Under the pieces are notes generated by a model that was not told the origin of the DNA, did not search any database, and worked only from the letters and a program-made list of their open reading frames with translations. Source: Candidatus Omnitrophota bacterium (GTDB lineage: Bacteria > Omnitrophota > Gorgyraeia > Tantalellales > Tantalellaceae). Taken from it: a DNA stretch of 57,040 bases. The stretch is from positions 1 to 57,040 of the forward strand of contig JAYEOV010000063.1 of NCBI GenBank assembly GCA_034723315.1, read 5' to 3'. The position numbers were made by a program, and so were the translations under genes. This document shows, one piece after another, positions 1 through 49,712 of the stretch (position 1 is the stretch's first letter; each line of letters starts with the position of its first letter).

Positions 1-93
1 ATCCGCCAAGCCAAAACACAAATTATTCCAAGCAAAAAAACAACTTATAAATACAGTTATTACAAATATAACTGCTTTCCTAATCTTCATCAT
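1..93 (-). CDS. 5' part of a signal-peptide-bearing protein running off the window edge (candidate immunity/partner of the giant protein)
   Basis: Not in the ORF track. AGGAG SD lies 6 nt before ATG at 93 and the start overlaps the giant gene's last codons. Reads MMKIRKAVIFVITVFISCFFAWNNLCFGLAD and is open to position 1: basic N-terminus plus hydrophobic core. Confidence 0.7.
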   Translation of the reverse strand, partial: MMKIRKAVIFVITVFISCFFAWNNLCFGLAD

Positions 94-3000
94 TAAAATC
101 TCCTATTAAAGGTATCGTATTAAATTGGGGATAAATTCTATGAATATCACTTCTCTGTTTATTGCAAGAATTCGTTAATTCAACAATCAGTCGGTCATGC
201 TCATGCTCTATACCTTGTACTTGTCTGGTATATTCTTCCTCTGTAATTCTCCCTTCCAGATATAAAGATACTGTAAGGTTTGTTGCATTATTTTTATATT
301 CTTTAAATTCTTGTGATTTTACCCTAAAAAAGTCATCAATGTCATCAAGTTTACTCTGTCTTGAAGCATTATACATGTTTATAAAAGTATTGTAAACTTT
401 ACCGATCTTTGAAAATAAGGCGTACTGAGGGCTCGTTTCAGAAGCTAATGAATTAATCATGACTGTCAGAAAATCTTCTACCCCGCTGACATTTCCTTCA
501 AAAAAAGGGATACCGTTTTCAGTTTTAAGAACTAATGCTATTTTATTTGTTTCCTTTTCGAAAAAGATTATTTCGCCACTTCCTTGATTTGTTCCATTTT
601 GTTCAAATGCCTTTACCTGGATATCAAATTTATCACTATAACCTCCTACTATCCTAAACTCAGAAGGCTTTCCGTTATAATCATACTTAATTCTATCATT
701 GCCACTGCTGGGCTCTAAAACAAGAACCTGATCGCCTTCTGAATCTATATAGATACATTTCGTAGTTTTAAATCCATCTTTTACATCAATTCTTTTCATT
801 CCATTTCCTAAATCATGTTCTTGTTCTCCGCCTTCTAATTGATAACTTCCATCCGATTGTTGTTCATAAAAACAATGTTCGGTAACATTCCCTTCTCTCC
901 TGCCCATCAATCTGTCGTCATTCAAAGACAGATCTATAAAATTTGCTGTTTCCTTATCCTGCTCGCTGTTAATTTCACTTAAATATATTCTTTTTACTTG
1001 CTCGCCTTTACCATTTAGAGTGATCTCTACTTGATCCGGATTAGCTAATAAGTCGTATATCCCGCCCAATTTCCACATACTATTTATTGTTTCCTGATGG
1101 AAATACCCGGCAGCATATACCTCAATAGCTTTTCCAATTCCGTCTTCCTTTATCATATTAGTAAAATCAAGCAACTGTGCCATATAAGCGGCTTCTTGCC
1201 ACGGTGTAGCTCCCGGACCACCTAACGTTAAAAATCCCATTCCAGCTTCATAGGAAGAATCAAAAATTCCTCTTACAGGATCACCATCTTCTAAAAATCC
1301 TTCAATTGCCCCCGCTATAGCATTTGAAGACAGGGCTGCTATTAATGGATCAATGTTTAATGCCTGGGCCGCCCATTGCAAGCCTACCGAAGTTACTCCC
1401 TGAAGTAATCCTGTCTGAACATCTTTCCACAAATCCCCGGGACTTCCTCCACCCATCCCGAACGTCCCTAACCCCGCCTGTAAACTGCTCCTTATCCCGA
1501 TCCCTGCCAGGTAGGAAATTTTCGGGTCTAGGCCCAGGGTTTCAGCGAATTTTTGGACGCCTGAATACGCGAGTTCTCCGGAAACATGGGGTAAAATAGC
1601 GGTGTTAAGTGTATATGCCACTGCTTCAAGACCGGTAAGATGTTCCGTGATCAGGGCACCTTCCGGGCCGGTCATGGTCACGTCAATACCGTTAAGAAAC
1701 GATATCCCGAGACTGCAGGCGGCAGTCGCGGTAAGGTCTGTAATGAAAGGATCAAGCCCTGTTTCCCTGCCGAATATACTAATACCCGTTCTCGTGCTCG
1801 TCATCAACGCTCCCGTCATGAAATTCCCGGTCGGCATGAATCCGTTCACGAGAAAATCTCCGGTCATGAAACCGCCCGTAAGAAAAGACGCCGTAATTCT
1901 TGCGATATCGGAATTTATGTTCAAAAAGGACATGCCCTGCGTGAGAGCGATATTATAAGAGATCGCCGTCACCGTATTCAATGCCGCATTCAACGTGAAC
2001 GCCGGCAGGTTCGATACCAGTCCGTTCATGCTCCCCTTGAAAATACTGATACCGGTCTCTATCGAATCCCTTAATATCGCACCGGCGCCGGCGATACTTT
2101 CATAGAAGTTGATAATTATACCGGGCAGGTTGACTACGACCGTGAATACGCTTAGAACGAGTGTGGCGACCCCTAATATCCTGCTTATCATCTGGCAGAT
2201 TTCATTGTCTATAAAGGAAAGAGTGGCGGAAAGAACAGCGAAACCTATAATTATCCAGGACAGAAAGTCGAGGTTCCCCCTGACGCTGAGGGCCTCTTGA
2301 GCGGAAAGAGCTTTTCCTGCCGGCGGCGCCCTTTCCGAGATGGTATACCCCGTCCAGTGCATCCTGAAGGTCATGCTGTCAACGGTCACCGACTCGCCGG
2401 AAGCCCCGTTATTCGGCTCATAATACGTGACGTTCCCCTCCGCGTCGATACCGGTAACTATCACAAAGTGATCGCTGTCCATATGGACGATAACCTGTTC
2501 GCCGCTTTGCACAATATCGACCAGGTCCTCAAATTCTAGCCTGAAATTATATGCGACTGTTTCCGTATCTTCCAGCTGCTTATTGATATACCTGTTCATC
2601 GCGTAAAGCGATATTTCAAGCGCGCCTTCGGTAAAACAATCGATAGCGCCGGCCAGAATATCTATCAATATCAGGGATACCGCTACCAGCTCAAGTTCCT
2701 GCTCTATACCTTTATTTTTCAGATAGTTACGAACTGTATCAAAAGCGCAGTATCCGAAATTTATATCAGTGCCGGACATCCAGTCAATGATCAGGTCCAC
2801 GTCTTTTATTCCCCAGGCAGCCTTATTAAGCCCGTTTATTTCACCGGAAGTGAGCCCCAGGCTTTCAAGCAACGACTCCCTCTCTGATCCCGTGGTCCCC
2901 GGGTCCAGGTAATTATAAAGAAAATCCTTAACTCTCTTTCTTACAGCATTATTAAAAGCCGTCTTTCCCTGATACTCCGATGAACTCAGCAACTCTTTTC

Positions 3001-6000
3001 TCAATACACCAACATCAAACGCGATCCTGTTCCGCGGATCCAGGCAACCCTGAGTCCCGGCAACATCCAACCATGAATCGATCTCGTTCCGGCCGGGATT
3101 TCTCCCCAGGATCTTCGTATAATAAACACAGAGTATCTGTTCGACTTCCTGCTGAAGTATCTCGACCTCAGCATTCGCCTCTCTTTCCAGAACAATGGCC
3201 ATTGAACTATTGTACTCATCCATGATCCCTTGTTTTGCTTCAGCTATATCCTGATCTATCTGCTCATAGGCTTCCGCTTTTGCCCACACAAGCTTACTTC
3301 TCGTGTCCCCCACGTGCTGTATCTGCCGTTCTATATCATTTCTAACGCTGTTCTTTTTATTCCTGTCCCACGGCCATAAGGGCTTCCAGCTGTTCACAGC
3401 GTTTAGCTGGGAATAGAGCTGCCCTAACGCGTTATCGCACGATCCTATCTGAGAACCTATAGTATCCTCCACATGCTGGATCGCGCCGTGTTTCGCCTCT
3501 CCAAGATCACAAAGGGCCTGCGCCGTTTTTGTCTCTATTTCGATCCTGGCATTCCGAATATTTTCACTGGTCTTGATCCTTGTCCCTTCGTAATTTATGT
3601 CCACCAGATCGCCGTTATCATCGTATGAATATTTCACTACTGAATCCCATTCCGGGTCGGTTATCTCAACAAGACGCCCCAGGGCGCCAAAATGCTCGAC
3701 CCTCGAGTTCCCTTTCAGGGCGCAGATTATCTTCCCCCTTGGATCATATACTGTTCTCATCGTCCATGAGTCATCCTTGAAATAGTCAGGAAGGTGTTCC
3801 CTGGCAAGTTTTATCTCCGGGCCAAGCTGTTCTTCAAAGGAAAGTATCATATCATTCTGCACGGCATACTGCTTGAGGCCGTTCACATCGATCTGAAGCT
3901 TGGGTGAGTTCTCGTGAAAAACTTCCGGCGGAGTTTCACATTTCACAAAGACAGGGCCTTCATGATCTATAGAAGAACCCTTCCCGCATGAGATCTTCAC
4001 CCCGATATTGATGATCCTGGCAGGTTCAAAATTCCCTGCTGTTACGCCGTTGTAAATATATCCGTTCTTCGGCGTAAGCGTCACTGTGTACCAGGTATCT
4101 TCCTTCTCCAAAAAAACACTTGTCCCGTACTGGAAATCATATTCCTCGTCCTTCACGAAAACCTGTGCCCAGCAGGGTTCACCGGTTGAAGTTACCAGTC
4201 CCGACGGTATCTTTACCTTGAATTTCAGTTCCTTCCCGGTGAGATCTAAAGGACCCGGATAGTTATATCCCGGAACGTCATAACGCAGGTCGACGAACAT
4301 TTCGCCATGGTGATAATTTGTGTCAGCTGTCTTCAACTTTGTCTCCAGGACCCACTGGTCATTCGCATCGTCCCTGGTCAGCGCTCTTATCCCTGATATA
4401 TAGTCGATATCCTGGGCCCTCCAATCCCCGTTCTCCAGGTCAAGTGTGCCAATATCCGGACCGTCCCCGGGATCGACATATGTCCTCATAGCTTCCCAGC
4501 TTATATAATTCGGGTTGCCCGGGTCCGGCTGAACATCAGGGATCGCGCCAATATAAGGTTCTACGGATCCCTTGCTCACGAGCATGGGTGTCTCCACGTA
4601 TGTTTCCCCTTCAGGTAATTTAAAATCATTTCCATCCTTCATATAGATCTTTCCGTTGTAACTCTTGTTACTATAAGGAGTCTTTATCCTCAGCCCGATC
4701 AAACGTATATTATCGGCATTGAACCCGGGATCCATTACGCCCCAGGGACAATTCTTCCCGGAGGGGATCAGGCTGACCCTGTACCATATGCCATCCTGTG
4801 TCAGTGTCACTTCCGTCCCGTACTGGCTCAGCCACCTGTTGTCCTTGGCAAACACCTGCGCGATCAAAGGTTTTCCGTCCGAAAAAGCTCCTTCTGGCAA
4901 TTTCACAAGAAAACTTATTTCCTGATCACGCAGGCTCAACGGGCCTGAAACATTCCCGGCAAAATACTGCAGATCAAGATATATCTCTCCCTGACGATAC
5001 CCGTATTGAGAGCCGATCAAACCGGCATCGATAATAAGCTGATCATTCGCGGGATCGAAGGCGGCCCCTGAAAAACCTCTGGAGGAAATATGTGTCTGGA
5101 CTTTCCACGTATTACTATTACAAACCGTATCAAAACCTATCTTCTCTATCTCGATCTCCCCGGTAGTTATTGAAGAGGGCCATTCGTCAGGCTGGAACCG
5201 CAAGACCCGTCCCTTTGTATTCACGGCCACAAGGCGGTAATCCCTGTAAATAAGTTTTGTGTTATCATCCGTTATGATCTCCGTCCATTCCCCGTCGACA
5301 AAACATGTTCTGGTGGCCCCGTCCGTGAGCACCAGGGTAAACTTTTTCAACTTTCCGATACTGTCAAATTCAATATTCGTTATTACGATCCCGTTCGGGC
5401 AATCAACATGATCAACGTTACCATCAGCGTAATATATTATTGTTCCGTTATCTTTATGCAGTTCGACAAATTCCGATATCATATTGCCTTCATCGTCATG
5501 GTAAAACCTGTGTACATGCCCTCTTGTATCATGAAATTCACGGATCATGCCGTTTGGATCAAAAACACGCACGGCCCCGTCAAGATCCCTGATAGCCGTG
5601 CCTGTATCGGAATATGTGTAAATAAATTCATTAACGACCTTTTCGCCCTTCTTCTGGGTGAAATGGGCGAGCTTGCCATCGCTGTACTCGTAGTATGACT
5701 CAAGGCCGATATCATTCACCTGGTAATACAGCAGATCTTCCCTGTAATACCGGTAAGAATTTGACTGCAGGTCGTGAACAACGACTATCACCTCTCCTTC
5801 CGCGCCTGTTTCATACGCATAATCATATTCCCTGCCATCGGGATGTTTTGCGCGGGTAACGCGGTTCAGGCCATCAAGCGTATAACTGACACCTTCTTTG
5901 TCAGTGATCGCCGAGAGACGTTTATCTTCATACAGAAATCTGACCCCGCCGGTATCCACTATCGAAGTGATATCTCCGTTCTTATCAAAATCCACGATCA

Positions 6001-8080
6001 TATCTTCACGGGTGATGATCCTGACCAGGTCCCCTCCGGTATCGTAGATCCTCTGCAAATTACCTCTCTTTACAAGGACCTCATTGATATACCCCAGATC
6101 GTTTGAGGAATAATTGAATGATACGTTCCCGCCATCAGTCATGAGACCGGCGGGCAAACCGCTTTCACACGTCAACACTTCTCCCTTTACGTTACGGACC
6201 TCGCTGACCAGGCCTTGCTCATCGTAATATATGACCATCGGGATGTGATCATTATCACTGCTCCCGATAAGCTCTGACCTGTGCGCGCCTTCGGAAATAA
6301 AAGCGTACGTATACACGGGGCCTTCCGGGGTGGCTAGCCTTTTGAGGCGGCCATTCTCATACTCGGCTACCTCACCGTTCGGTTTCGCGAACTTTACGGG
6401 GATACCGTTCGGATCGTATGTACATATTGCCTCATTATTTATCGTCTTTACGTAATTTATGCCGCCGTTCTCATCTTTGTTGTAGTAAAAAACAGTAAGG
6501 CCCATGACGGAGGAATATTCGGTTACCTTATACCCTTCCCTGTACCGCGCCAGTGCCCCGCCGGCAAGCTTTGTCTGGAGCAAATTGCCGTTGTAAACAA
6601 CCCCAATAGACCCGTCAGAATATTCGATAAGGGCATTTCGAAGCTTTCCTTCGGGATCAAGTTCTATGCGCGATATTGTCGATCCATCTTCCTTGAGCGT
6701 GACAGAAAAAATCCCGCCGTCAAGATACCGGACAATGTCCCCGCTGGATGTAGTAACAGAAATGACCGAAGCCGGATCCGCCGTTTGGTCCTGACCGGCC
6801 GAAGCTTCATACCAGTATATAAGGTTACTGTCTTTATCAAATACCTTTATAGCGCCGGCCGCATAATATTCGTGGTAACCTGTCAGTTTGCCGTCAGAGT
6901 CGTAAAAATTTTCAGTATAGCTCGCATCGGGACCAACCTTTCTGATAAGTTTCCCCGTCCTGTCATAATAATAAGCCTTTCCGTCCCCATTCAGCTTTGC
7001 CTCTAACAACCACTCATCATCTGAATCATAATTATAGACCTTTATATCGACGATCTCGCCCTCTGTGTTATAACAGGTCAATATCTCTACCTTGCCGTCG
7101 GAACGCCTTGTATAGACCTTGGTCCTTCCATCGGAATAAACGATCCTGATAATTTTGCCTCTGGCGTCACGGAGAAATTGCCCCCCGCCGTCATATTCTT
7201 GAAAACAACCCGTTCTTATCCCGTTCGCATCAAAAAAATGTTGAACATAATACTGGACCTTATTATTCGCATAGTAACTGGTCAGGGATTTTCTTTGCCC
7301 GTCCGGCTGTCTCGTATAGACCTTATATCTGCCGTCGGCGTAAACCTTCTTGATAAGTTCATTATTAGCGTCATAATGCGTTTCGCTTCCGTCCCCATTT
7401 ATCTGTGACCAACCTGTTCTTACACCGTTTTGATCATAGGTAGTTATATTTTTATAAATTAACCCGCCATCCGACCTGCAATAGGTCATGGTCTCCACTC
7501 TACCGTCAGAACGCCTCGTGTAAATCCTGTAACTGCCATTGGAATCAACCTTCTTTACAAGTTTATCATCAGCATCGTAGTGATACTCTCTCCCGTCAGG
7601 ATGTTTCCTTATCCGACCCGTGCTTTCACCGTTTGAATTATAACTGTATTCATATGTATAAATAACGCTGCTATCGGCCTTATAATAGGCCATCTTTTCG
7701 ACCTTGCCGTCAGGGCGTCTCGTATAGATCTTATATCTGCCGTCAGAGTAGATCCGTTCCTTCAGTTGACCTTCCAGATAGTAATAAACGTTTCCTCCCG
7801 AGGATGTCTTCACCGTGTCATATTCCACACCATGAGGTGAGACAGGATTATTTGAAGGTGTAAAATCTTCGATAGCGTTCCTGGTATTAACGAGGGATTC
7901 AACAGAAGCCTGGTTAGCTGTAAGATCATTGGGGACCATCAAGCCTGATGGATCGTTTATCGGATTTGCCGTCGGGTCCAGCAGGTCTGCCGCCCACGCT
8001 ATCTGGTTCCATAAAAAAATCCCGGCCAGGGCAACCGAGATCATCTTGACGGACATTTTTGACCGATTTTGCGTATTCAT
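80..8080 (-). CDS. Giant secreted YD-repeat protein with CBM-like domains, C39-like peptidase and variable C-terminus (polymorphic toxin/adhesin-like), 2666 aa
   Basis: AGGAGG SD before ATG 8080; signal peptide ending NQIAWA; many YD/YDxxG beta repeats; duplicated AQVFxKD...QYG domain; Cys...VIVHMDSDHFVIV...YYEP; hydrophobic helices after residue ~1935. Confidence 0.8.
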   Translation of the reverse strand: MNTQNRSKMSVKMISVALAGIFLWNQIAWAADLLDPTANPINDPSGLMVPNDLTANQASVESLVNTRNAIEDFTPSNNPVSPHGVEYDTVKTSSGGNVYYYLEGQLKERIYSDGRYKIYTRRPDGKVEKMAYYKADSSVIYTYEYSYNSNGESTGRIRKHPDGREYHYDADDKLVKKVDSNGSYRIYTRRSDGRVETMTYCRSDGGLIYKNITTYDQNGVRTGWSQINGDGSETHYDANNELIKKVYADGRYKVYTRQPDGQRKSLTSYYANNKVQYYVQHFFDANGIRTGCFQEYDGGGQFLRDARGKIIRIVYSDGRTKVYTRRSDGKVEILTCYNTEGEIVDIKVYNYDSDDEWLLEAKLNGDGKAYYYDRTGKLIRKVGPDASYTENFYDSDGKLTGYHEYYAAGAIKVFDKDSNLIYWYEASAGQDQTADPASVISVTTSSGDIVRYLDGGIFSVTLKEDGSTISRIELDPEGKLRNALIEYSDGSIGVVYNGNLLQTKLAGGALARYREGYKVTEYSSVMGLTVFYYNKDENGGINYVKTINNEAICTYDPNGIPVKFAKPNGEVAEYENGRLKRLATPEGPVYTYAFISEGAHRSELIGSSDNDHIPMVIYYDEQGLVSEVRNVKGEVLTCESGLPAGLMTDGGNVSFNYSSNDLGYINEVLVKRGNLQRIYDTGGDLVRIITREDMIVDFDKNGDITSIVDTGGVRFLYEDKRLSAITDKEGVSYTLDGLNRVTRAKHPDGREYDYAYETGAEGEVIVVVHDLQSNSYRYYREDLLYYQVNDIGLESYYEYSDGKLAHFTQKKGEKVVNEFIYTYSDTGTAIRDLDGAVRVFDPNGMIREFHDTRGHVHRFYHDDEGNMISEFVELHKDNGTIIYYADGNVDHVDCPNGIVITNIEFDSIGKLKKFTLVLTDGATRTCFVDGEWTEIITDDNTKLIYRDYRLVAVNTKGRVLRFQPDEWPSSITTGEIEIEKIGFDTVCNSNTWKVQTHISSRGFSGAAFDPANDQLIIDAGLIGSQYGYRQGEIYLDLQYFAGNVSGPLSLRDQEISFLVKLPEGAFSDGKPLIAQVFAKDNRWLSQYGTEVTLTQDGIWYRVSLIPSGKNCPWGVMDPGFNADNIRLIGLRIKTPYSNKSYNGKIYMKDGNDFKLPEGETYVETPMLVSKGSVEPYIGAIPDVQPDPGNPNYISWEAMRTYVDPGDGPDIGTLDLENGDWRAQDIDYISGIRALTRDDANDQWVLETKLKTADTNYHHGEMFVDLRYDVPGYNYPGPLDLTGKELKFKVKIPSGLVTSTGEPCWAQVFVKDEEYDFQYGTSVFLEKEDTWYTVTLTPKNGYIYNGVTAGNFEPARIINIGVKISCGKGSSIDHEGPVFVKCETPPEVFHENSPKLQIDVNGLKQYAVQNDMILSFEEQLGPEIKLAREHLPDYFKDDSWTMRTVYDPRGKIICALKGNSRVEHFGALGRLVEITDPEWDSVVKYSYDDNGDLVDINYEGTRIKTSENIRNARIEIETKTAQALCDLGEAKHGAIQHVEDTIGSQIGSCDNALGQLYSQLNAVNSWKPLWPWDRNKKNSVRNDIERQIQHVGDTRSKLVWAKAEAYEQIDQDIAEAKQGIMDEYNSSMAIVLEREANAEVEILQQEVEQILCVYYTKILGRNPGRNEIDSWLDVAGTQGCLDPRNRIAFDVGVLRKELLSSSEYQGKTAFNNAVRKRVKDFLYNYLDPGTTGSERESLLESLGLTSGEINGLNKAAWGIKDVDLIIDWMSGTDINFGYCAFDTVRNYLKNKGIEQELELVAVSLILIDILAGAIDCFTEGALEISLYAMNRYINKQLEDTETVAYNFRLEFEDLVDIVQSGEQVIVHMDSDHFVIVTGIDAEGNVTYYEPNNGASGESVTVDSMTFRMHWTGYTISERAPPAGKALSAQEALSVRGNLDFLSWIIIGFAVLSATLSFIDNEICQMISRILGVATLVLSVFTVVVNLPGIIINFYESIAGAGAILRDSIETGISIFKGSMNGLVSNLPAFTLNAALNTVTAISYNIALTQGMSFLNINSDIARITASFLTGGFMTGDFLVNGFMPTGNFMTGALMTSTRTGISIFGRETGLDPFITDLTATAACSLGISFLNGIDVTMTGPEGALITEHLTGLEAVAYTLNTAILPHVSGELAYSGVQKFAETLGLDPKISYLAGIGIRSSLQAGLGTFGMGGGSPGDLWKDVQTGLLQGVTSVGLQWAAQALNIDPLIAALSSNAIAGAIEGFLEDGDPVRGIFDSSYEAGMGFLTLGGPGATPWQEAAYMAQLLDFTNMIKEDGIGKAIEVYAAGYFHQETINSMWKLGGIYDLLANPDQVEITLNGKGEQVKRIYLSEINSEQDKETANFIDLSLNDDRLMGRREGNVTEHCFYEQQSDGSYQLEGGEQEHDLGNGMKRIDVKDGFKTTKCIYIDSEGDQVLVLEPSSGNDRIKYDYNGKPSEFRIVGGYSDKFDIQVKAFEQNGTNQGSGEIIFFEKETNKIALVLKTENGIPFFEGNVSGVEDFLTVMINSLASETSPQYALFSKIGKVYNTFINMYNASRQSKLDDIDDFFRVKSQEFKEYKNNATNLTVSLYLEGRITEEEYTRQVQGIEHEHDRLIVELTNSCNKQRSDIHRIYPQFNTIPLIGDFNDED

Positions 8081-8135
8081 TTCCCTACCTCCTGTTTCAT
8101 TAATAGCCGAAAGCGTTTTACTTCCATCCTTTAAA

Positions 8136-8203
8136 TAAAAAAGCCGGGCCGCCTATTGATAGAACGCGAAAGATCGCGAAATAAACCAATCGGCAACCCG
8201 GCT
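8136..8203 (-). terminator. Intrinsic terminator forming the riboswitch expression platform
   Basis: Minus strand AGCCGGGTTGCCGATTGGT...ATCAATAGGCGGCCCGGCT followed by TTTTTT. The 5' arm is the aptamer's 3' strand. Confidence 0.75.
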
Positions 8204-8368
8204 ATGCGTCACTCCCCGTCCAAATCTCAGAGAGCAACATTTGGAAGGCATCCGTAGCTTTGTCCAGGCTTTGCTTCCTCAGCTTTGCCTGGTCCGCCGA
8301 AACCGATCGATCCGGGATCAACCGGCGCAGACGGAGTCCCTGCCTCACGGCAGGTTTACCTTTGTCAC
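8186..8368 (-). ncRNA. c-di-GMP-I (GEMM-I) class riboswitch, atypical (A at position 20; 72-nt internal insertion)
   Basis: Minus strand GGTAAACC-TGCC-GTGA-GGCA-GGGAC...ACAAAGCTACGG...ATAGCCGGGTTGCCGA matches the GEMM-I P2/P3 consensus. It lies between a promoter and the giant gene. Confidence 0.75.
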
Positions 8369-8389
8369 ATTCATAAAGAACACATTTAT

Positions 8390-8418
8390 ACTTTAACTCA
8401 AGTTTTATCTTTTGTCAA
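8390..8418 (-). promoter_or_regulatory. sigma70-type promoter for the riboswitch/giant gene
   Basis: TTGACA (8418-8413), 17-nt spacer, TAAAGT (8395-8390), just upstream of the aptamer. Confidence 0.65.
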
Positions 8419-8522: not shown

Positions 8523-8671
8523 AATCCCACACCTGTACCCTATTCTAAACCCAGACCAGTACCGTGTTCAAGTTTCTTGAAAGAATTTTGTCATACATAA
8601 AGAGCGGATCATGGACAAGTCGGATGAGATATTAGATGATTATGTGGCCTGAGGGGTACAGGTGTGAGATT
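8523..8671. repeat. 18-bp imperfect inverted repeat pair
   Basis: aatcccacacctgtaccc (8523-8540) versus gggtacaggtgtgagatt (8654-8671), 1 mismatch. Confidence 0.6.
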
Positions 8672-8787
8672 AACTTTGGGGACAGGTGTAAGATCAGCCT
8701 TAGGTACAACTGTGGGTTCAATTTGATAAACGGTACTGTTAAACTAACGGTACTGTTAAAACTGTTAAAAAAACTCTTCCGTTTTCC

Positions 8788-12613: not shown

Positions 12614-13762
12614 CTATTTTTTCGCCGTTTCACTTACGATACGGTGGGTGTCTTTTGCTATCAACAGTTCTTCGTTCGTGCTGATTGTCAGGAATTCAGC
12701 GCTGTTTCCCAGCAGATGGCGTAACTGTTCCCTGATGCTGTCTTTGATCCGCGGGACGTTCTCCCCTATCCCCGCCGTAAACACTACCGCATCGACTTTT
12801 CCGAGAACGGCCGCATAGGAACCGATATATTTTATTATCCTGTAAACGAAAATATCAAAGGCAAGTTTTGCCCTTTCGTTGCCTTCCTCTATGGCCTTGA
12901 GGATGTCGCGCATATCGTTGCTTATACCTGAAACGCCCAGAAGTCCGCTTTTTTTGTTCAGTATCCCGTTGACCTGATCGGGAGTCAGCCCCTCCCTCTG
13001 CATGAGGAATGTCACTACCGCCGGATCCAGGTCTCCCGAACGAGTCCCCATAAGAAGACCTTCCAGCGGCGTAAGCCCCATGGACGTATCTATGCTCTTC
13101 CCCTCCTTTATCGCCGCGATGCTGCAACCGTTACCGAGATGCACCGTTATTATGTTGAGCTGCTCGATAGGCCTTCCCAGAAGTTCCGCGGCCTTACGGG
13201 AAACGTACCTGTGACTCGTGCCGTGGAAGCCGTACTTCCTTATGCCGTATTTCTTGTAAAATTCGTAAGGGACACCGTAACAGAACACGTGCTCGGTCAT
13301 GGACTGGTGAAAGGCGGTATCGAAAACCGCTACCTGCGGAACACCCTTGAAGATATTCATGCATCCCCTTATCCCTTCCAGCGAAAGCGGGTTATGCAGC
13401 GGCGCAAGCTCCGCGAATTTCTCTATGCTTTCCAGGACCTTATCGTCTATCAGGGTGCTTTCGTTGAACTCCTCGCCGCCGTGGACCACCCTGTGGCCGA
13501 CCCCCTCGACCTCGCTGACATCATTGATGACGCCTTTATCCACGTGGATCAGAACGTCCCTGATGATCTCTATGGCCCGGTAGTGATTAGGACACGGTAC
13601 TTTTTCCTGCACCTTATCCCTGCCGTTGACCTCATGTGTAAGCGTTGAAGAATCTTCCCCGATCCTTTCTACTATCCCCTTACAAAGAACCGCTTCTTTT
13701 TTTACGACAAACAGCTCATATTTCGCCGATGAAGAACCACAATTTATTACCAGAATCATCAT
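12614..13762 (-). CDS. ackA: Acetate kinase
   Basis: ILVINCGSSS, GHRVVHGG, APLHN, VFDTAFH, YGFHGTSH, HLGNG, TNEEL. Start trimmed to MMILV. Confidence 0.95.
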   Translation of the reverse strand: MMILVINCGSSSAKYELFVVKKEAVLCKGIVERIGEDSSTLTHEVNGRDKVQEKVPCPNHYRAIEIIRDVLIHVDKGVINDVSEVEGVGHRVVHGGEEFNESTLIDDKVLESIEKFAELAPLHNPLSLEGIRGCMNIFKGVPQVAVFDTAFHQSMTEHVFCYGVPYEFYKKYGIRKYGFHGTSHRYVSRKAAELLGRPIEQLNIITVHLGNGCSIAAIKEGKSIDTSMGLTPLEGLLMGTRSGDLDPAVVTFLMQREGLTPDQVNGILNKKSGLLGVSGISNDMRDILKAIEEGNERAKLAFDIFVYRIIKYIGSYAAVLGKVDAVVFTAGIGENVPRIKDSIREQLRHLLGNSAEFLTISTNEELLIAKDTHRIVSETAKK

Positions 13763-46096: not shown

Positions 46097-46792
46097 TTAC
46101 AGTTTTCCAGTAAAATACCGGCTGAGGACCCTCAGGTATCCGTACAAAAAGGCCGCTACAAAAGCTAACCTTCTGATTTTCGTCCCCTTGTCACGCCTTT
46201 CATATTTGATCGGGATATATTTTATCCTGTATCTTTTCAACAGCATAATAAGCGTTATGGACGAAGTGAGCGAAAAACCGTCAGGCAAAAGGTCAAGATA
46301 CTTCAGGAGCACACACCTTTTCATGATCCTTAACCCCGAGTTGAGGTCGGCGACCGGGACCTCGAAGACGCGGGAAAGGATCTTTTCCATCGACTTCTTG
46401 GCTAATAAATGGTCTTTCGGCCTTTTGACGTCATCCCGCCGGTCTCCCACCACCATGTCACATACATCCACCTCCGCTGTGAGTGACAATATATCGCTCA
46501 CAGAATATGTATTGTCGGCATCTATGATACAGATGTATTTACTTTTAGCCTGCCGCACGCCGCTTTTTAAAGAAGCACCGTATCCTCTTCTCCTCTCGTG
46601 ACGGACTGTCCGCACATCAAACTTATCGACAAGGTCAGGTGTGTTATCCGTGGAACCATCGTCCACAACAATTATTTCAGGCACCTTACCCTCCGCAAAT
46701 AGCTGAAATAACTCGTTCAACAAGTTATCGATATGAACATCCTCGTTGAAGACCGGTATTACAATACTTAAATTCTCGGCTATTCCTTCCAT
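46097..46792 (-). CDS. GT2 polyprenol-phosphate glycosyltransferase (DPM1-like)
   Basis: IVIPVFNE, VDDGSTD, GYGASLK.G, DAD, DLNSGLR. Confidence 0.88.
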   Translation of the reverse strand: MEGIAENLSIVIPVFNEDVHIDNLLNELFQLFAEGKVPEIIVVDDGSTDNTPDLVDKFDVRTVRHERRRGYGASLKSGVRQAKSKYICIIDADNTYSVSDILSLTAEVDVCDMVVGDRRDDVKRPKDHLLAKKSMEKILSRVFEVPVADLNSGLRIMKRCVLLKYLDLLPDGFSLTSSITLIMLLKRYRIKYIPIKYERRDKGTKIRRLAFVAAFLYGYLRVLSRYFTGKL

Positions 46793-48243
46793 ACCTTACT
46801 ATACAGCTCCACCTTGATATACTCCCTCTTTATATCACTTTTAATCCGAAACACGGTAAAATTTTTCATTATATCCGGATCCTTATCAATATCTTCCCTG
46901 AAACAGATCTTGATGTCCAGTTTTTTTCCATAACTGAGTTCAAGGGGATTTACCACACCGTTTATCCTGCCATAATAAGTAAACCTGGATTCCTTCCTTT
47001 CCGGAACGAACATTATCTTGTCATTTTCGGACACATCGGGTAGATAAATCATTACTTGTGAGATCAGGCTCTGATACCACCTTCCGCTGATCCGCTGCTC
47101 GGCATTATAATTTATTTTTAGTCCCCAAAACACTATCAAAACGAACAGCAGAATGGCGACTAATTTACGTATGAGTCCTCTTTTTTTTAAAAAAAATCCC
47201 GTTACGAAACTTGATACAACCAGACCGAGTCCTATTGACATAAGGTAACAATAATGAAGCTTGGCGGCAGAATAAACCGATATTAAGACTGTGGGAGTTA
47301 CCATCCAGATCCCACCGATCCATAAAAGCCGGTCTTTTGTTTTTCTGAAATCACGATTTTTAACCAGCGCAAATAAGAGAAATACCGCAAAAACAAACCC
47401 GGTTACCGCCTTTAACAGTTTTGGGTTATACGTGCCTATCAGCATCAATTGAAGCATCCTCAATATTGTCGCCGCCTGGTCTATCCCGTTAAAATGAAAC
47501 GAGTATCCATAAGAAAAAGGATATCGGTATATCACGTAATTGACCAGGTAGAGAAATATCGCCAGGCCGAAAAGGACATATTTTCCCCAGAATTTTTTGT
47601 GAATTATATCTCTATATTTTTTTTGCGGATCAGAGATGAGTTCAAGACTCATCATAATAACAGAAAGAAAGAACACGGACATCTCCTTTGAGAATATGGA
47701 AAAGACAAACGAGACTAAAGCGCCAACGTAAAAAATCCCTTTCCTGGACTGCAGGAACCTATACCAGTAAATAAGCGTCAATAAAATAAAAAAAGCGTTC
47801 ACCATCGAAGGAATATTTGCTATCCCCAAAACCCCCATAAAATGCTCGAAGTGAAAGGCAAATATCAGGCAGGTTATGAACGCGTACGTCTTGTGTTTTG
47901 AGATCATGTGAACGAAATTATAGCAAAGGACAATATTAAATAAGTGAACAAGCAGCATGAAAACATGGTAAGGAGCCGGATTCATCCTGAACGCATGATA
48001 GATATTGCAGAAAAACATCAGGGGTACCGGCCTGAAAAACTTCGTCCTATACCATAAAGGCTTGTAAAACGGATTGAAATATTTAAAGCAATTATCTGTA
48101 ACCGACGCGAATTTTAACCAGCCGTAATCGTCACCCACAAAAAAATAATGCAAACCCTTCCAGTACACCAGAATGGAAAGTGTCAGCAGCAGGAACAACT
48201 GCCATTTTTTCTCCCGAAGTAACGATGTTATAAATACCATCAT
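46780..48243 (-). CDS. Multi-TM membrane protein, GT-C/PMT-like glycosyltransferase
   Basis: First TM followed by F.GDD, FRP, YH...L..H..N, SKE; about 11-12 TM segments. Confidence 0.65.
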   Translation of the reverse strand: MMVFITSLLREKKWQLFLLLTLSILVYWKGLHYFFVGDDYGWLKFASVTDNCFKYFNPFYKPLWYRTKFFRPVPLMFFCNIYHAFRMNPAPYHVFMLLVHLFNIVLCYNFVHMISKHKTYAFITCLIFAFHFEHFMGVLGIANIPSMVNAFFILLTLIYWYRFLQSRKGIFYVGALVSFVFSIFSKEMSVFFLSVIMMSLELISDPQKKYRDIIHKKFWGKYVLFGLAIFLYLVNYVIYRYPFSYGYSFHFNGIDQAATILRMLQLMLIGTYNPKLLKAVTGFVFAVFLLFALVKNRDFRKTKDRLLWIGGIWMVTPTVLISVYSAAKLHYCYLMSIGLGLVVSSFVTGFFLKKRGLIRKLVAILLFVLIVFWGLKINYNAEQRISGRWYQSLISQVMIYLPDVSENDKIMFVPERKESRFTYYGRINGVVNPLELSYGKKLDIKICFREDIDKDPDIMKNFTVFRIKSDIKREYIKVELYSKVWKE

Positions 48244-49712
48244 GTCTTCTTGTTTTCCGGAATATTAGCCCACAATTTTCTGATGACTACAGCCAGACAA
48301 AATATGATTAGAAAGAAAAACGCGAAAAATATTAACTGGCGTCCTATCAGTCCCATAAAAAGATGCCTGTTATCCGGCAGAAGAAGTTCTTTCAAATGCA
48401 CGTTCGGACGCCCCACGTATGTATGGAATATTTCAACACCTAATTCCCTGGGTAAGACTTCTGAAAACAATGTCGGCATGCCGAAACTGCTTACAAACAC
48501 CTTGGAAGCATAAACAACCGGCCAGCTCCCGTAAGGAAGAAGCCCGGCCTGGGCTCCGAGATACGCAAAAAAGACGCTTACCCCACCCAACGCGTAAAGA
48601 ACAGGCCGTTTTACCTTATCAATGATGCAGGCCACGGGTATCATCATAAACGGACAAACGGGCAGAAAATAGCGGACCACTATATGTGCCTCATGAGGCC
48701 ATGCCACACAATATGGGTCCGCCTTTCTGACATATGACGAGCATATCAAGCCCGTAAACAGAAAGACGGAAGCGATCACCGACATTTCCGCCCTGAACTT
48801 TTTCCGCCTGAACGCTTCCACTACCCCCCACAGGGACAGGAGCATAACAGGCATGTAAACGAAAAAAGCCACCTTGAGTCCGAAGAAAAGATCAACTAAA
48901 TTGCGAAGTCTGGGATACGTCATCATGTTCGGGTTCTGTCTTATGCGATACGAATACGGCATCGTGAAGAACGACCCGAATGCGATCTTCATATACCCGG
49001 AAAGCAACGCCACCGGCAAAAAGGCTCCCGCAAGCATCACCGGTACCCTCTTGATACCTCCCGTGCAAGCACCGTAAACAAAAAGGACCAGGCTTATCGG
49101 GGCCATCCCCAAGTGACACGCCACTGCCGCACCTCCCAGAAAACCGCTCCAGAAATAAGGAGCGCTGCCTTCCGTCTCACCCAACCGTGAGCAGAACAGC
49201 AGAAAAAAAGCCGTAAAAACGTAAAGCGTCGCCTGTATGCCATTATAAAGCGCCGTCGAATATCCAAAATTCATTGTTCCGAACGCGAACAGGAACGTAA
49301 GAAGCAACCGGTCATTCTCTTTCACGTCCAGGCGACGTAAGAAGGAATAGAACAGCACCGCGATAAGCGCTCCGCAGACTGACGCTATGAATACGATCGA
49401 GAGAATATGCACGGCGAGAAACCTGGACCAGTCGGCCAAACCACCCATTAAAGGCCTGGAGATAAAATAAAGCGGGATCACGAGAGCGCTCCCTCCGGGC
49501 AAGTGCCCGGACATGTAATGCCCGCCATAGGTCGAAACATCCACGGAATTCACCCCGTATCTCATGTAAATATCACCGTGGTCAATAACCGATATGGCCA
49601 GGTCTACCAGGATGGCAGACATCGATTCCGGCTTGATATATATAAATAATAGATATACAAGCCATACCGTCAGAAATATTTTCACTTTTACACTTAATAC
49701 TCTTACGTTCAA
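48240..49712 (-). CDS. Multi-TM membrane protein, possible GT-C glycosyltransferase
   Basis: D.S.Y.GHY.S...PG...L..P, many TMs, RYFLP; in a glycan locus. Confidence 0.55.
   Translation of the reverse strand: MNVRVLSVKVKIFLTVWLVYLLFIYIKPESMSAILVDLAISVIDHGDIYMRYGVNSVDVSTYGGHYMSGHLPGGSALVIPLYFISRPLMGGLADWSRFLAVHILSIVFIASVCGALIAVLFYSFLRRLDVKENDRLLLTFLFAFGTMNFGYSTALYNGIQATLYVFTAFFLLFCSRLGETEGSAPYFWSGFLGGAAVACHLGMAPISLVLFVYGACTGGIKRVPVMLAGAFLPVALLSGYMKIAFGSFFTMPYSYRIRQNPNMMTYPRLRNLVDLFFGLKVAFFVYMPVMLLSLWGVVEAFRRKKFRAEMSVIASVFLFTGLICSSYVRKADPYCVAWPHEAHIVVRYFLPVCPFMMIPVACIIDKVKRPVLYALGGVSVFFAYLGAQAGLLPYGSWPVVYASKVFVSSFGMPTLFSEVLPRELGVEIFHTYVGRPNVHLKELLLPDNRHLFMGLIGRQLIFFAFFFLIIFCLAVVIRKLWANIPENKKT

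Follow-up and report, generated by a model that had tools for sequence, protein, structure and literature searches.

A putative self-processing polymorphic toxin and its coupled partner gene in Candidatus Omnitrophota

Organization of the locus

The window analyzed here is a stretch of 57,040 nucleotides (positions 1-57,040 of contig JAYEOV010000063.1, assembly GCA_034723315.1) from a Candidatus Omnitrophota bacterium, whose genome we refer to as G000. It carries a gene (80..8080) for a protein of 2666 aa, P0001, followed by the start of a second gene (1..90). An earlier note on this DNA had listed a series of elements from a promoter to the coupled downstream gene, and all of them are present in the same order on the (-) strand, to which all coordinates below refer.

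P0001 opens with a predicted Sec signal peptide (aa 1-30; 7991..8080), seen in hydropathy as a hydrophobic N-terminus with AWA at its end and conserved among relatives. Behind it lie four 68-aa repeats (aa 97-368; 6977..7792), anchored at aa 118, 186, 254 and 322 with identities of 29-38%, and a YD/RHS-like beta-repeat stalk (aa 369-970; 5171..6976) recognized by RHS/YD repeat matches. Two CBM-like domains (aa 990-1150, 4631..5113; aa 1215-1385, 3926..4438) form an internal pair with 35% mutual identity (E 2e-26). The CBM likeness comes from language-model features of the second, galactose-binding-like domain, which match the Exop_C, CBM30, SGBP_B_XBD and CBM27 clusters at 0.93-0.95 and serve as a lead only; Pfam and PDB sequence searches returned no match for a CBM-like domain. 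CBM-like and lectin domains differ from relative to relative. A probable coiled coil (aa ~1500-1660; 3101..3580), placed by reading the sequence, precedes the C39-fold domain and the double-glycine-like motif described below, behind which hydrophobic Gly/Ala-rich helices (aa 1937-2130; 1691..2272; low model confidence), with the hydrophobic stretch itself at aa 1936-1999, are predicted to be a membrane-entry segment. Sequence comparison then delimits a conserved pre-tip region (641..1690) containing a recombination junction at about aa 2170-2270, and the protein ends in an AT-rich tip with 32% GC against 44-49% in the rest. Rhs toxins have a PxxxxDPxG motif that closes the core just before the toxin. 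As had been noted, no motif of this type lies ahead of the tip; DPxG occurs in P0001 only at aa 43, 475, 556, 841 and 1446. The downstream ORF starts at 90, overlaps the stop of the P0001 gene by 11 nt and runs for 30 codons before the contig breaks it off.

The locus has no gene for an outer-membrane export partner. The reported lack of VgrG and PAAR extends to the genome (94.8% complete), where PF05954 and PF05488 had no match and controls were matched; PF03865 (CdiB/ShlB) was likewise unmatched in this genome, where no control matched either, and P0001 gave no TPS match.

A c-di-GMP-I aptamer with an insertion precedes the gene

A sigma-70-type promoter-like site, TTGACA-17-TAAAGT (8390..8418), scores 10/12 consensus positions and is a consensus match only; TTGACA is also present at the same place in the leaders of relatives. 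The cyclic-dinucleotide riboswitch that had been proposed next to it is a c-di-GMP-I (GEMM-I) aptamer (8190..8370), identified by alignment to relatives and recovered as two split c-di-GMP-I-GGC matches at 8320-8369 (27 bits, E 5e-4) and 8188-8283. No RNA family reaches its Rfam gathering score within the window, and the aptamer falls below its cut-off (27 versus 59 bits) because P2 and P3 are separated by an inserted pair of hairpins, 72 nt in all (8264..8335). This insertion is missing from 4/4 aligned relatives and accounts for the split match; the gathering score is passed at the same place in 4 out of 10 relative loci scanned. The insertion folds at -37.7 kcal/mol, as low as none of 500 base shuffles, and no second copy was found across the genome or in the relatives' loci retrieved. 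P3 is not formed in an unconstrained fold of the window aptamer. Our own alignment to the Rfam consensus places a G at the G20-equivalent position, and the meaning of G20 and A20 in this aptamer is treated in PMC6140456.

Folding further identified an intrinsic terminator (8137..8202) that takes the aptamer 3' strand as its 5' arm, which predicts an ON switch; this layout is kept in four relatives though the arm sequence has changed. A simple terminator scan missed it. The conserved c-di-GMP-I motifs and an expression platform are both present, and the genome contains 7 GGDEF matches and 5 other c-di-GMP aptamers. High c-di-GMP would probably be required for transcription past the terminator, and we keep this prediction at "probably" because the insertion may impair ligand binding.

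Variable tips on a shared core

P0001 was matched in 33 of 61 related genomes and, among the matches listed, none but its own passes aa 2469. The earlier note had suggested collecting homologs to look for a conserved N-terminal part of about 2250 aa with variable C-termini. The 66 non-redundant complete C-termini that we collected fall into 23 unrelated clusters, and a conserved N-terminal part does exist, but its end is not fixed near aa 2250 and varies among relatives between about aa 2270 and aa 2470. Pfam assigned PT-TG together with a weak RES to the tip of L022, C92 amidase to L030 and L052, RES to L055, TNT to L072 (E 2e-25) and a Tle3-like (alpha/beta) hydrolase to L054, and a further relative, L137, has an Ntox10 tip with Imm27 directly next to it. 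Many tips are envelope-active hydrolases. The core profile matches 181/401 Omnitrophota genomes at E 1e-20 or better, a count to which far longer proteins with weaker matches contribute, and the C39 profile also matches, more weakly, ORFs of 10,000-45,000 aa. All 18 of the best-scoring complete examples retrieved end in a tip plus an adjacent ORF. These data support the assignment of P0001 to an Omnitrophota polymorphic toxin family with its own processing module, of which we found no description in the literature searched.

Tips are shuffled across the core tree: 23 changes are required to explain the tip labels on the 40-row C39 tree, against a mean of 23.1 for shuffled labels. A topology uniting the four carriers of the hairpin tip found in P0001 in one clade is rejected (p-AU 1.5e-58), and this tip has moved among at least four core clades. 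The P0001 gene itself is, by computation, of mosaic origin, with aa 1667-2266 at 52-80% identity to its kin in the clade with a Cys nucleophile and aa 2167-2366 at 61-74% identity to distant hairpin carriers. Further, orphan tip-immunity cassettes occur in G214, L035 and L038, and none was found in G000. The one in G214 combines pre-tip and hairpin with an overlapping SPFH gene and lies behind two integrase-like genes.

Partner genes are coupled to the tips

In 33/34 loci the next ORF starts -23 to +31 nt from the toxin stop, and the same coupling is seen in L022, L134 and L137. A hydrophobic N-terminus is present in 31 of the 33 coupled partners, the two exceptions following RES and TNT tips. 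Among 49 tip-partner pairs, tip and partner were both shared in 50 comparisons (shuffled mean 6.4, maximum 17 in 2000); 68 pairs shared a tip class without a detectable shared partner and 14 shared a partner, mostly beta-propellers, without a shared tip. L039 carries four HEAT-repeat partner paralogs in tandem, and in L027 a short tip is followed by a nuclease-like gene, unlike immunity. Coupled position and co-variation with the tip bear out the downstream gene as a tip-specific partner, and by the same genomic evidence these genes are likely to be cognate immunity genes.

Alternatively, the main role of the same machine may be that of an effector for predation or host attack against larger prey cells, with the partner only preventing self-harm during export. 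Omnitrophota have been proposed to be epibionts or predators, with giant proteins linked to prey attack (PMC10066038; 10.1101/2023.11.21.568195), and the many envelope-active tips and the variation of CBM-like and lectin domains among relatives would suit such a role. However, the exchange of tips, the orphan cassettes and the partner paralogs in tandem are marks of conflict between kin, as outlined in PMC4436062, and we consider a mainly predatory function rather unlikely. Predation and kin conflict are compatible with each other.

A C39-fold domain with a leader-like site in the same chain

The C39-like protease of the earlier note was recovered as a C39 papain fold (aa 1773-1918; 2327..2764) on a structure model with a pLDDT of 83.6. 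Its predicted triad is C1778, H1871 and E1888 (Glu for Asp), a register that follows from the aligned ranges and the catalytic residue numbers of C39 enzymes. Among 45 relatives His and Asp/Glu are each conserved in 45/45, and the nucleophile is Cys in 6 and Ser, an unusual residue for this role, in 39. The model aligns with 5xe8 (Z 14.7, rmsd 2.1, 122 aligned) and matches ComA (Z 14.7), the LahT leader complex (Z 14.6) and also the HlyB-type C39-like domain (3zua, Z 13.4). No ABC domain was found in P0001, and PF03412 had no match in G000.

Double-glycine leaders have hydrophobic residues at -12, -7 and -4 and end in GG, GA or GS according to the rules given in PMC10885120. A motif of this kind is indeed present C-terminal to the C39 fold, 18 residues behind it (aa 1925-1936; 2273..2308; L-12, A-7, V-4, G-2, N-1), where alignment and model predict a cis cleavage site, but it ends in GN instead of the permitted pairs. 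Its -12 and -4 positions are hydrophobic and -2 is Gly in 45/45 relatives, and -7 is Ala in 29/45; the last two residues are GA or GS in 39/45, and the GN of P0001 recurs in its clade (6). The set with Cys and GN is a single clade, so this co-variation counts as one event. Cis cleavage after G1935-N1936 would, with somewhat better than even odds, free a 730-aa fragment starting with bacteriocin-like hydrophobic helices.

Given the Ser for Cys in 39/45 relatives and the Asn at -1, the C39 domain could be non-catalytic; like the HlyB domain that matches its model, it might chaperone the leader-like segment while the helices anchor an uncut protein in the producer's membrane. Yet only Cys or Ser occupies the nucleophile position next to the invariant His and Asp/Glu, and the RES, TNT and Ntox10 tips, which act in the cytoplasm and have partners located there, would have to be released into another cell. 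We regard a purely chaperoning domain as improbable and favor a C39-fold peptidase acting in cis.

The hairpin tip and its probable SPFH-like partner

The tip of P0001 (83..490) is, from sequence and model, a long acidic hairpin of two helices (aa 2553-2608 and 2614-2649). No enzyme fold, family match or hydrophobic pore segment was found in it, so its toxicity rests on the family context. The remainder of the cut partner gene is most likely an SPFH-like fragment that contig C21 carries at its end (G000:C21:16542-17123 (-)), a join we infer between halves that lie on different contigs and share no sequence overlap. The SPFH protein of the G214 cassette, P0020, matches SPFH/Band 7 above the cut-off (E 2e-7), and a search of 401 genomes with it returned only G214, the C21-end fragment (36%, E 1e-21) and one marginal match (E 1e-3). 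The fragment itself matches Band_7 below the cut-off (E 0.025) and HflC over a 24-residue stretch with a probability of 11.7%.

Hairpin tip and SPFH-like partner are predicted to bind each other. Their modeled complex scores 0.69 against 0.01 for the best of three controls, with at least 94% of contacts shared between runs and a partner pLDDT of at least 77; the score mark, reached by 116/157 solved and 2/215 mismatched pairs, is only roughly valid for the alignments built here. Because the partner has a hydrophobic N-terminus, we place the predicted action of the tip outside the cytoplasm. There the SPFH-like partner would quite probably neutralize it. In the most speculative step, the partner would be a target decoy and the tip would jam SPFH scaffolds of the victim such as HflK/HflC; we think this doubtful, and our literature search found no toxin aimed at SPFH cages. 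That the family is toxic but this hairpin, with its SPFH partner, is a non-toxic kin-recognition or adhesion pair seems very unlikely: the hairpin has neither a catalytic fold nor a hydrophobic pore segment and the other c-di-GMP riboswitches of the genome precede genes with signal-like N-termini, but it stands where relatives carry named toxins, has been passed among at least four core clades and is retained with its partner as an orphan cassette.

Proposed function

We propose, with a probability of about 0.82, that the locus encodes a polymorphic toxin with a likely immunity gene, that is, an exported, cell-binding, self-cutting protein with a swappable tip. P0001 would likely be exported by Sec and use its repeat stalk and predicted glycan-binding domains to attach to a neighboring cell, and its own C39-fold peptidase would likely cut it to yield a membrane-entering, tip-bearing fragment. 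The targets would most likely be related Omnitrophota or other susceptible bacteria. The earlier note had left a choice between a polymorphic toxin and an attachment or invasion protein; the variable tips and the tip-specific partner support the first and leave the second less supported. Of the outcomes that the note had named as refuting its reading, neither of the two open to computation, invariant C-termini in homologs and absence of a protease fold, was observed. Its suggestion that the protein may not belong to a named class is not upheld, as the locus shows the genomic hallmarks by which polymorphic toxin systems are defined.

We also considered a bolder reading, which we find unlikely, of a phylum-wide class of toxin delivery in which bacteriocin maturation chemistry works in cis, mostly with Ser for Cys, a new non-enzymatic tip kills by jamming HflK/HflC-FtsH SPFH cages, a truncated HflC-like decoy neutralizes it and expression is turned on by a c-di-GMP riboswitch whose binding junction accommodates the 72-nt insert.

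In the available literature these Omnitrophota surface proteins are viewed as adhesins or prey-degrading coats. The toxin reading offers a concrete, testable function for a large class of unexplained surface proteins, and the family supplies small domains: what may be a papain-fold autopeptidase of the serine type, a large number of unnamed tips and the hairpin-SPFH pair.

Comparison with known systems

The aptamer shares with c-di-GMP-I (GEMM-I) riboswitches (RF01051/RF03167) P2, P3, the junction motifs, the G20-equivalent G and a terminator overlapping the aptamer 3' strand; the 72-nt double hairpin between P2 and P3 is its own, and a long P3 loop is found in the window aptamer and its relatives.

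With the Archaeovorin and Dockerin types of Omnitrophota giant proteins (10.1101/2023.11.21.568195; 10.64898/2026.06.07.730766) the family shares the phylum, signal peptides, RHS-like beta structure, hydrophobic helices and C39 domains, there proposed to cleave a polyprotein. Those proteins have at least 10,000 aa with enzyme arrays, whereas variable toxin tips, immunity genes and riboswitches are not among the features reported in the available text.

The top Foldseek match of the C39 domain is Citrobacter rodentium StbD (10.64898/2026.05.07.723447; PDB 8ssk, 8ssm), a CdiA-like polymorphic toxin that contains a C39 domain and, as described there, auto-processes. In StbD the C39 domain is the C-terminal toxin itself, whereas in P0001 it lies in the constant region, some 750 residues ahead of the variable tip. 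The C39 domains of PCAT/AMS transporters (ComA, LahT, PCAT1) share the fold (Z 14.3-14.7), the Cys-His-acid positions and the leader register (hydrophobic -12, -7 and -4, Gly at -2). In contrast, P0001 has no ABC transporter, enzyme and site lie in one chain and action is predicted to be extracytoplasmic; the family has a Ser nucleophile in 39/45, and in its Cys clade position -1 is Asn.

Another close architecture is that of Sec-exported RHS/YD polymorphic toxins such as Bacillus subtilis WapA/WapI. As far as PMC4436062 and Table 1 of PMC3482391 describe them, these share the signal peptide, YD repeats, a variable C-terminal toxin, a cognate gene directly downstream, orphan modules and toxin families (Ntox10/Imm27, RES, TNT, PT-TG, hydrolases), and C39 is absent from the Sec-class processing proteases listed in that table. 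The Omnitrophota family differs in lacking the Rhs core motif before the tip and in its processing module, where the C39 fold precedes an internal leader-like site and then hydrophobic helices. Its tips are mostly envelope-active, its partners membrane-anchored and part of the family is preceded by a c-di-GMP riboswitch.

The toxin gene and its relatives

The gene at 80-8080 (minus strand), encoding a protein of 2666 aa that we call P0001, is a real, well-supported polymorphic toxin locus. Here the earlier note had described, in order, a promoter, a cyclic-dinucleotide riboswitch, a signal peptide, a region of 68-aa repeats and YD-like beta structure, two CBM-like domains, a coiled coil, a C39-like protease, a double-glycine-like motif, hydrophobic helices, an AT-rich tip and a coupled signal-peptide gene, and we recovered all of these in that order on the minus strand. 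The host genome (1.8 Mb, 94.8% complete), in which the window is contig C63, yielded no P0001 paralogue. All named homologues belong to Candidatus Omnitrophota, the closest being from Ca. Tantalella remota (60% identity over aa 1500-2420). A whole-protein search found matches in 33 of 61 related genomes; among the matches listed, none but P0001's own extended beyond aa 2469. A profile of the core, the shared N-terminal part, matched 181 of 401 genomes of the phylum, including weaker matches in proteins of 10,000-45,000 aa. The host genome itself has open frames of 4,400-11,000 aa on contigs C6, C13, C23 and C57, typical Omnitrophota giants, with a GGDEF domain in one on C6. The P0001 contig also carries a long cluster of glycosyl- and methyltransferase genes for making surface polysaccharide (36093-57009), in which two 490-aa ORFs have no Pfam match (46780-49712).

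Variable tips on a shared core

Our family sample comprised 20 genome regions, 60 metagenome loci, 11 genome-collection loci and 18 proteins besides P0001. Once redundancy among the 74 complete C-termini was removed, 66 remained, whose last 170 residues fell by single linkage into 23 tip clusters; a few of these (L024, L027, L050) may reflect frameshifts or truncation. The two largest (n = 19 and n = 12) contain nucleophile-elbow motifs, from which we read them as putative alpha/beta hydrolases; Pfam supports such a tip only in the singleton L054 (Tle3, E 1e-5). Further types include C92 amidases, RES, TNT and PT-TG-linked domains. Another 19 regions, drawn from the top phylum-wide matches, gave 18 complete proteins, of which 15 had tips in known clusters and 3 had new ones. 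One of the new tips is Ntox10, and the gene behind it encodes Imm27, the two being a named toxin-immunity pair. Mapped onto a 40-row maximum-likelihood tree of the C39 region, the tip labels needed 23 changes, practically the mean after shuffling (23.1); tip type is thus not tied to core descent. The loci L041 and L054, for instance, share 81-89% identity across the core, with 16-22% across the tip. Three family members lie within 90 kb on one contig (G250:C1, L125-L127), and the two complete ones differ in their tips.

P0001 itself is, as judged from its alignments, a mosaic: it shares 52-80% identity with its Cys-clade kin (relatives with a Cys nucleophile and a GN site) over aa 1667-2266, whereas its identity to P0007 and P0018 is 21-37% as far as aa 2166 and rises to 61-74% across aa 2167-2366. 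The low GC content of the tip (32%, against 44-49% elsewhere in the gene) fits a recent tip swap. Contigs of a ~97% identical strain (sequencing runs X1/X2) cover 29 of 30 bins and miss the tip end; since no contig was found joining across that end, we do not count the strain data as evidence for the swap. Among the sequencing runs listed as carrying this sequence, none was of RNA.

Partner genes

The next ORF, the predicted immunity partner, begins -23 to +31 nt from the toxin stop in 33 of 34 loci. Partners sort by tip, with TPR proteins after one hydrolase class, HEAT or small membrane proteins after another, and beta-propellers or membrane proteins after C92 tips. Tip and partner were both shared in 50 comparisons against 6.4 expected, a figure in which kin are not independent, though tips are scattered over the tree; the tip alone was shared in 68 comparisons and the partner alone in 14. 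Partner N-termini are hydrophobic except after RES, TNT, PT-TG and Ntox10 tips (L022, L055, L072, L134, L137), as would be expected if each partner protects the compartment in which its tip acts. At one locus (L039:6499-9494) a single hydrolase-like tip precedes four tandem HEAT-repeat partner paralogues, and at another (L027:7110-7802) the gene after a family member whose tip is unusually short encodes a membrane-anchored protein resembling staphylococcal nuclease.

The C39 module and export

An AlphaFold2 model of aa 1640-1990 built from 14 sequences (pLDDT 83.6) matched the C39 peptidases ComA (Z 14.7), LahT with leader (Z 14.6) and PCAT1 (Z 14.3), as well as the StbD toxin (Z 13.5) and the HlyB-type C39-like entry 3zua (Z 13.4). 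Provided that the aligned ranges are colinear, C1778 falls on the catalytic Cys, using residue numbers that we take to be the catalytic ones of these C39 structures. Catalytic residues were counted from alignment columns after 12 duplicate or truncated rows of 57 were dropped, leaving 45; the C39 tree leaves off 5 more that lack a complete tip. The nucleophile position is Cys in 6 of the 45 relatives and Ser in 39; H1871 does not vary, and an acidic residue (Glu or Asp) stands at position 1888. Directly after the domain stands a 12-residue segment in the register of a double-glycine leader, as judged by the rules in PMC10885120, with Gly at -2 and Ile/Val at -4 in 45/45 each; the -1 residue is Asn in Cys-type relatives and Ala or Ser in the Ser-type ones. 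The group combining Cys and GN is a single nested clade (support 100/99). The segment was modelled at high confidence (blocks of 91-93), and the hydrophobic helices of P0001 begin immediately after it.

We infer from this arrangement that the C39 domain would cleave P0001 in cis at the leader-like site and that the freed fragment would enter a membrane through its hydrophobic helices. StbD is a reported precedent for C39 auto-processing (10.64898/2026.05.07.723447), and C39 domains have been suggested to cut Omnitrophota giant proteins (10.1101/2023.11.21.568195). The host genome encodes two secretins, and our guess is that P0001 might cross the outer membrane through one. A search for the ShlB transporter family gave no match, but its controls gave none either. 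For the CBM-like region, comparing its sequence with PDB and Pfam returned nothing credible, and its TolC matches (E 0.02-0.07) were dismissed.

The hairpin tip and its SPFH-like partner

A search of 1.84 billion representatives gave 5 relatives of the P0001 tip, to which P0007 is added, and carriers of this tip fall in four separate core clades. It is modelled as a long helical hairpin (pLDDT 97-98 within the hairpin) with no specific fold match: Foldseek gave none at E <=0.001, structural matches were generic helical hairpins only (best Z 10.0) and Atlas matches showed low recognition. Among the 401 phylum genomes the tip search found one strong further copy, in genome G214, and four weak matches (E 1e-3 to 6e-3). 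In G214 the tip sits in a stalkless 432-aa cassette, downstream of two integrase-like genes and overlapped by a 181-aa membrane-anchored SPFH protein. The surrounding module (L118, G214:C103) looks mobile, with a DnaG-like primase beside the two integrase-like genes upstream of the orphan cassette and a 320-aa ORF of no named family downstream.

The P0001 partner is cut at the start of the window, which encodes its residues 1-30, an N-terminus similar to that of the G214 SPFH protein. Among the 401 genomes the latter matches a fragment in the P0001 host whose first residue, equivalent to residue 54, is encoded at the extreme end of contig C21; the DNA there has 23-33% GC. Because the window holds residues 1-30 of the similar N-terminus, C21 most likely continues the cut gene, which would then encode about 245 aa, across contigs without overlap; no contig-end overlap extending the downstream gene was found in the host genome. 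Homologue searches gave nothing beyond these two copies, and neither has an NCBIfam hflC match. The predicted complex of tip and C21 fragment scored 0.69 (best of 3 controls, 0.01), with contacts agreeing by at least 94% between runs and partner pLDDT of at least 77. The mark for binding was reached by 116/157 solved and 2/215 mismatched pairs, a calibration that holds only roughly because our own alignments were used. The modelling thus supports binding of the tip to this C21 fragment, with the predicted interface on aa 2578-2643 of P0001. That the partner is a decoy of the tip's target is a lead and not a result, since its likeness to the host HflC is one 24-residue stretch (E 0.003, probability 11.7%) and HflK has no stretch in common with it. 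The C21 fragment has a C-terminal extension of ~70 aa (C21:16542-16780, minus strand), missing from the G214 partner, with a weak GWxTD match and presumably resembling an SmpA/OmlA-type motif.

An interrupted riboswitch

A 72-nt insertion separating P2 from P3 brings the score of the predicted c-di-GMP-I aptamer in the window below the Rfam cut-off; an uninterrupted element passes the cut-off in four relatives (4/10 loci). The insert forms two hairpins by itself, and a fold in which P3 is enforced lies ~3.4 kcal/mol above the unconstrained minimum. The 3' strand of the aptamer is also part of a strong terminator (-37.3 kcal/mol), so the folding predicts an ON switch. The G20-equivalent base is G in the window and A in the relative L034, where, going by PMC6140456, A would move specificity toward c-AMP-GMP; the L034 element (13021-13133) is a candidate c-AMP-GMP sensor in Omnitrophota. 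The host genome contains 7 GGDEF matches and 5 other aptamers. One c-di-GMP-I aptamer precedes the first gene of a tandem pair encoding paralogous secreted proteins with repeats (436 and 433 aa; C21:13123-16001, plus strand), a region that also carries a duplicated 78-90-aa ORF on the opposite strand. Between fabD and the promoter of P0001 (8520-8790) lie three 24-nt copies (8654-8725) with an inverted partner (8523-8563); several unrelated contigs match this region, which suggests a dispersed repeat element.

Comparison with known systems

A canonical Rhs identity and a PCAT reading of P0001 were discarded, as was a T6SS effector, since a search of the host genome found neither VgrG-type nor PAAR families. 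We found no published description of the family in the literature on Omnitrophota, C39, polymorphic toxins or SPFH immunity, supplements aside (which may hold parts), nor in that on riboswitch insertions and Omnitrophota RHS or immunity. The available parts of the Omnitrophota giant-protein papers, again without supplements, mention no variable tips, immunity genes or riboswitches, and one polymorphic toxin paper that mentions Omnitrophota does so in connection with Lipocone domains. As read from sequence, the organisation of tip and partner fits the genomic definition of polymorphic toxin systems in PMC4436062 and PMC3482391, to which this locus adds three unusual features: a predicted cis C39 and leader module that is mostly serine-type across the family, a hairpin-SPFH pair and an interrupted riboswitch.
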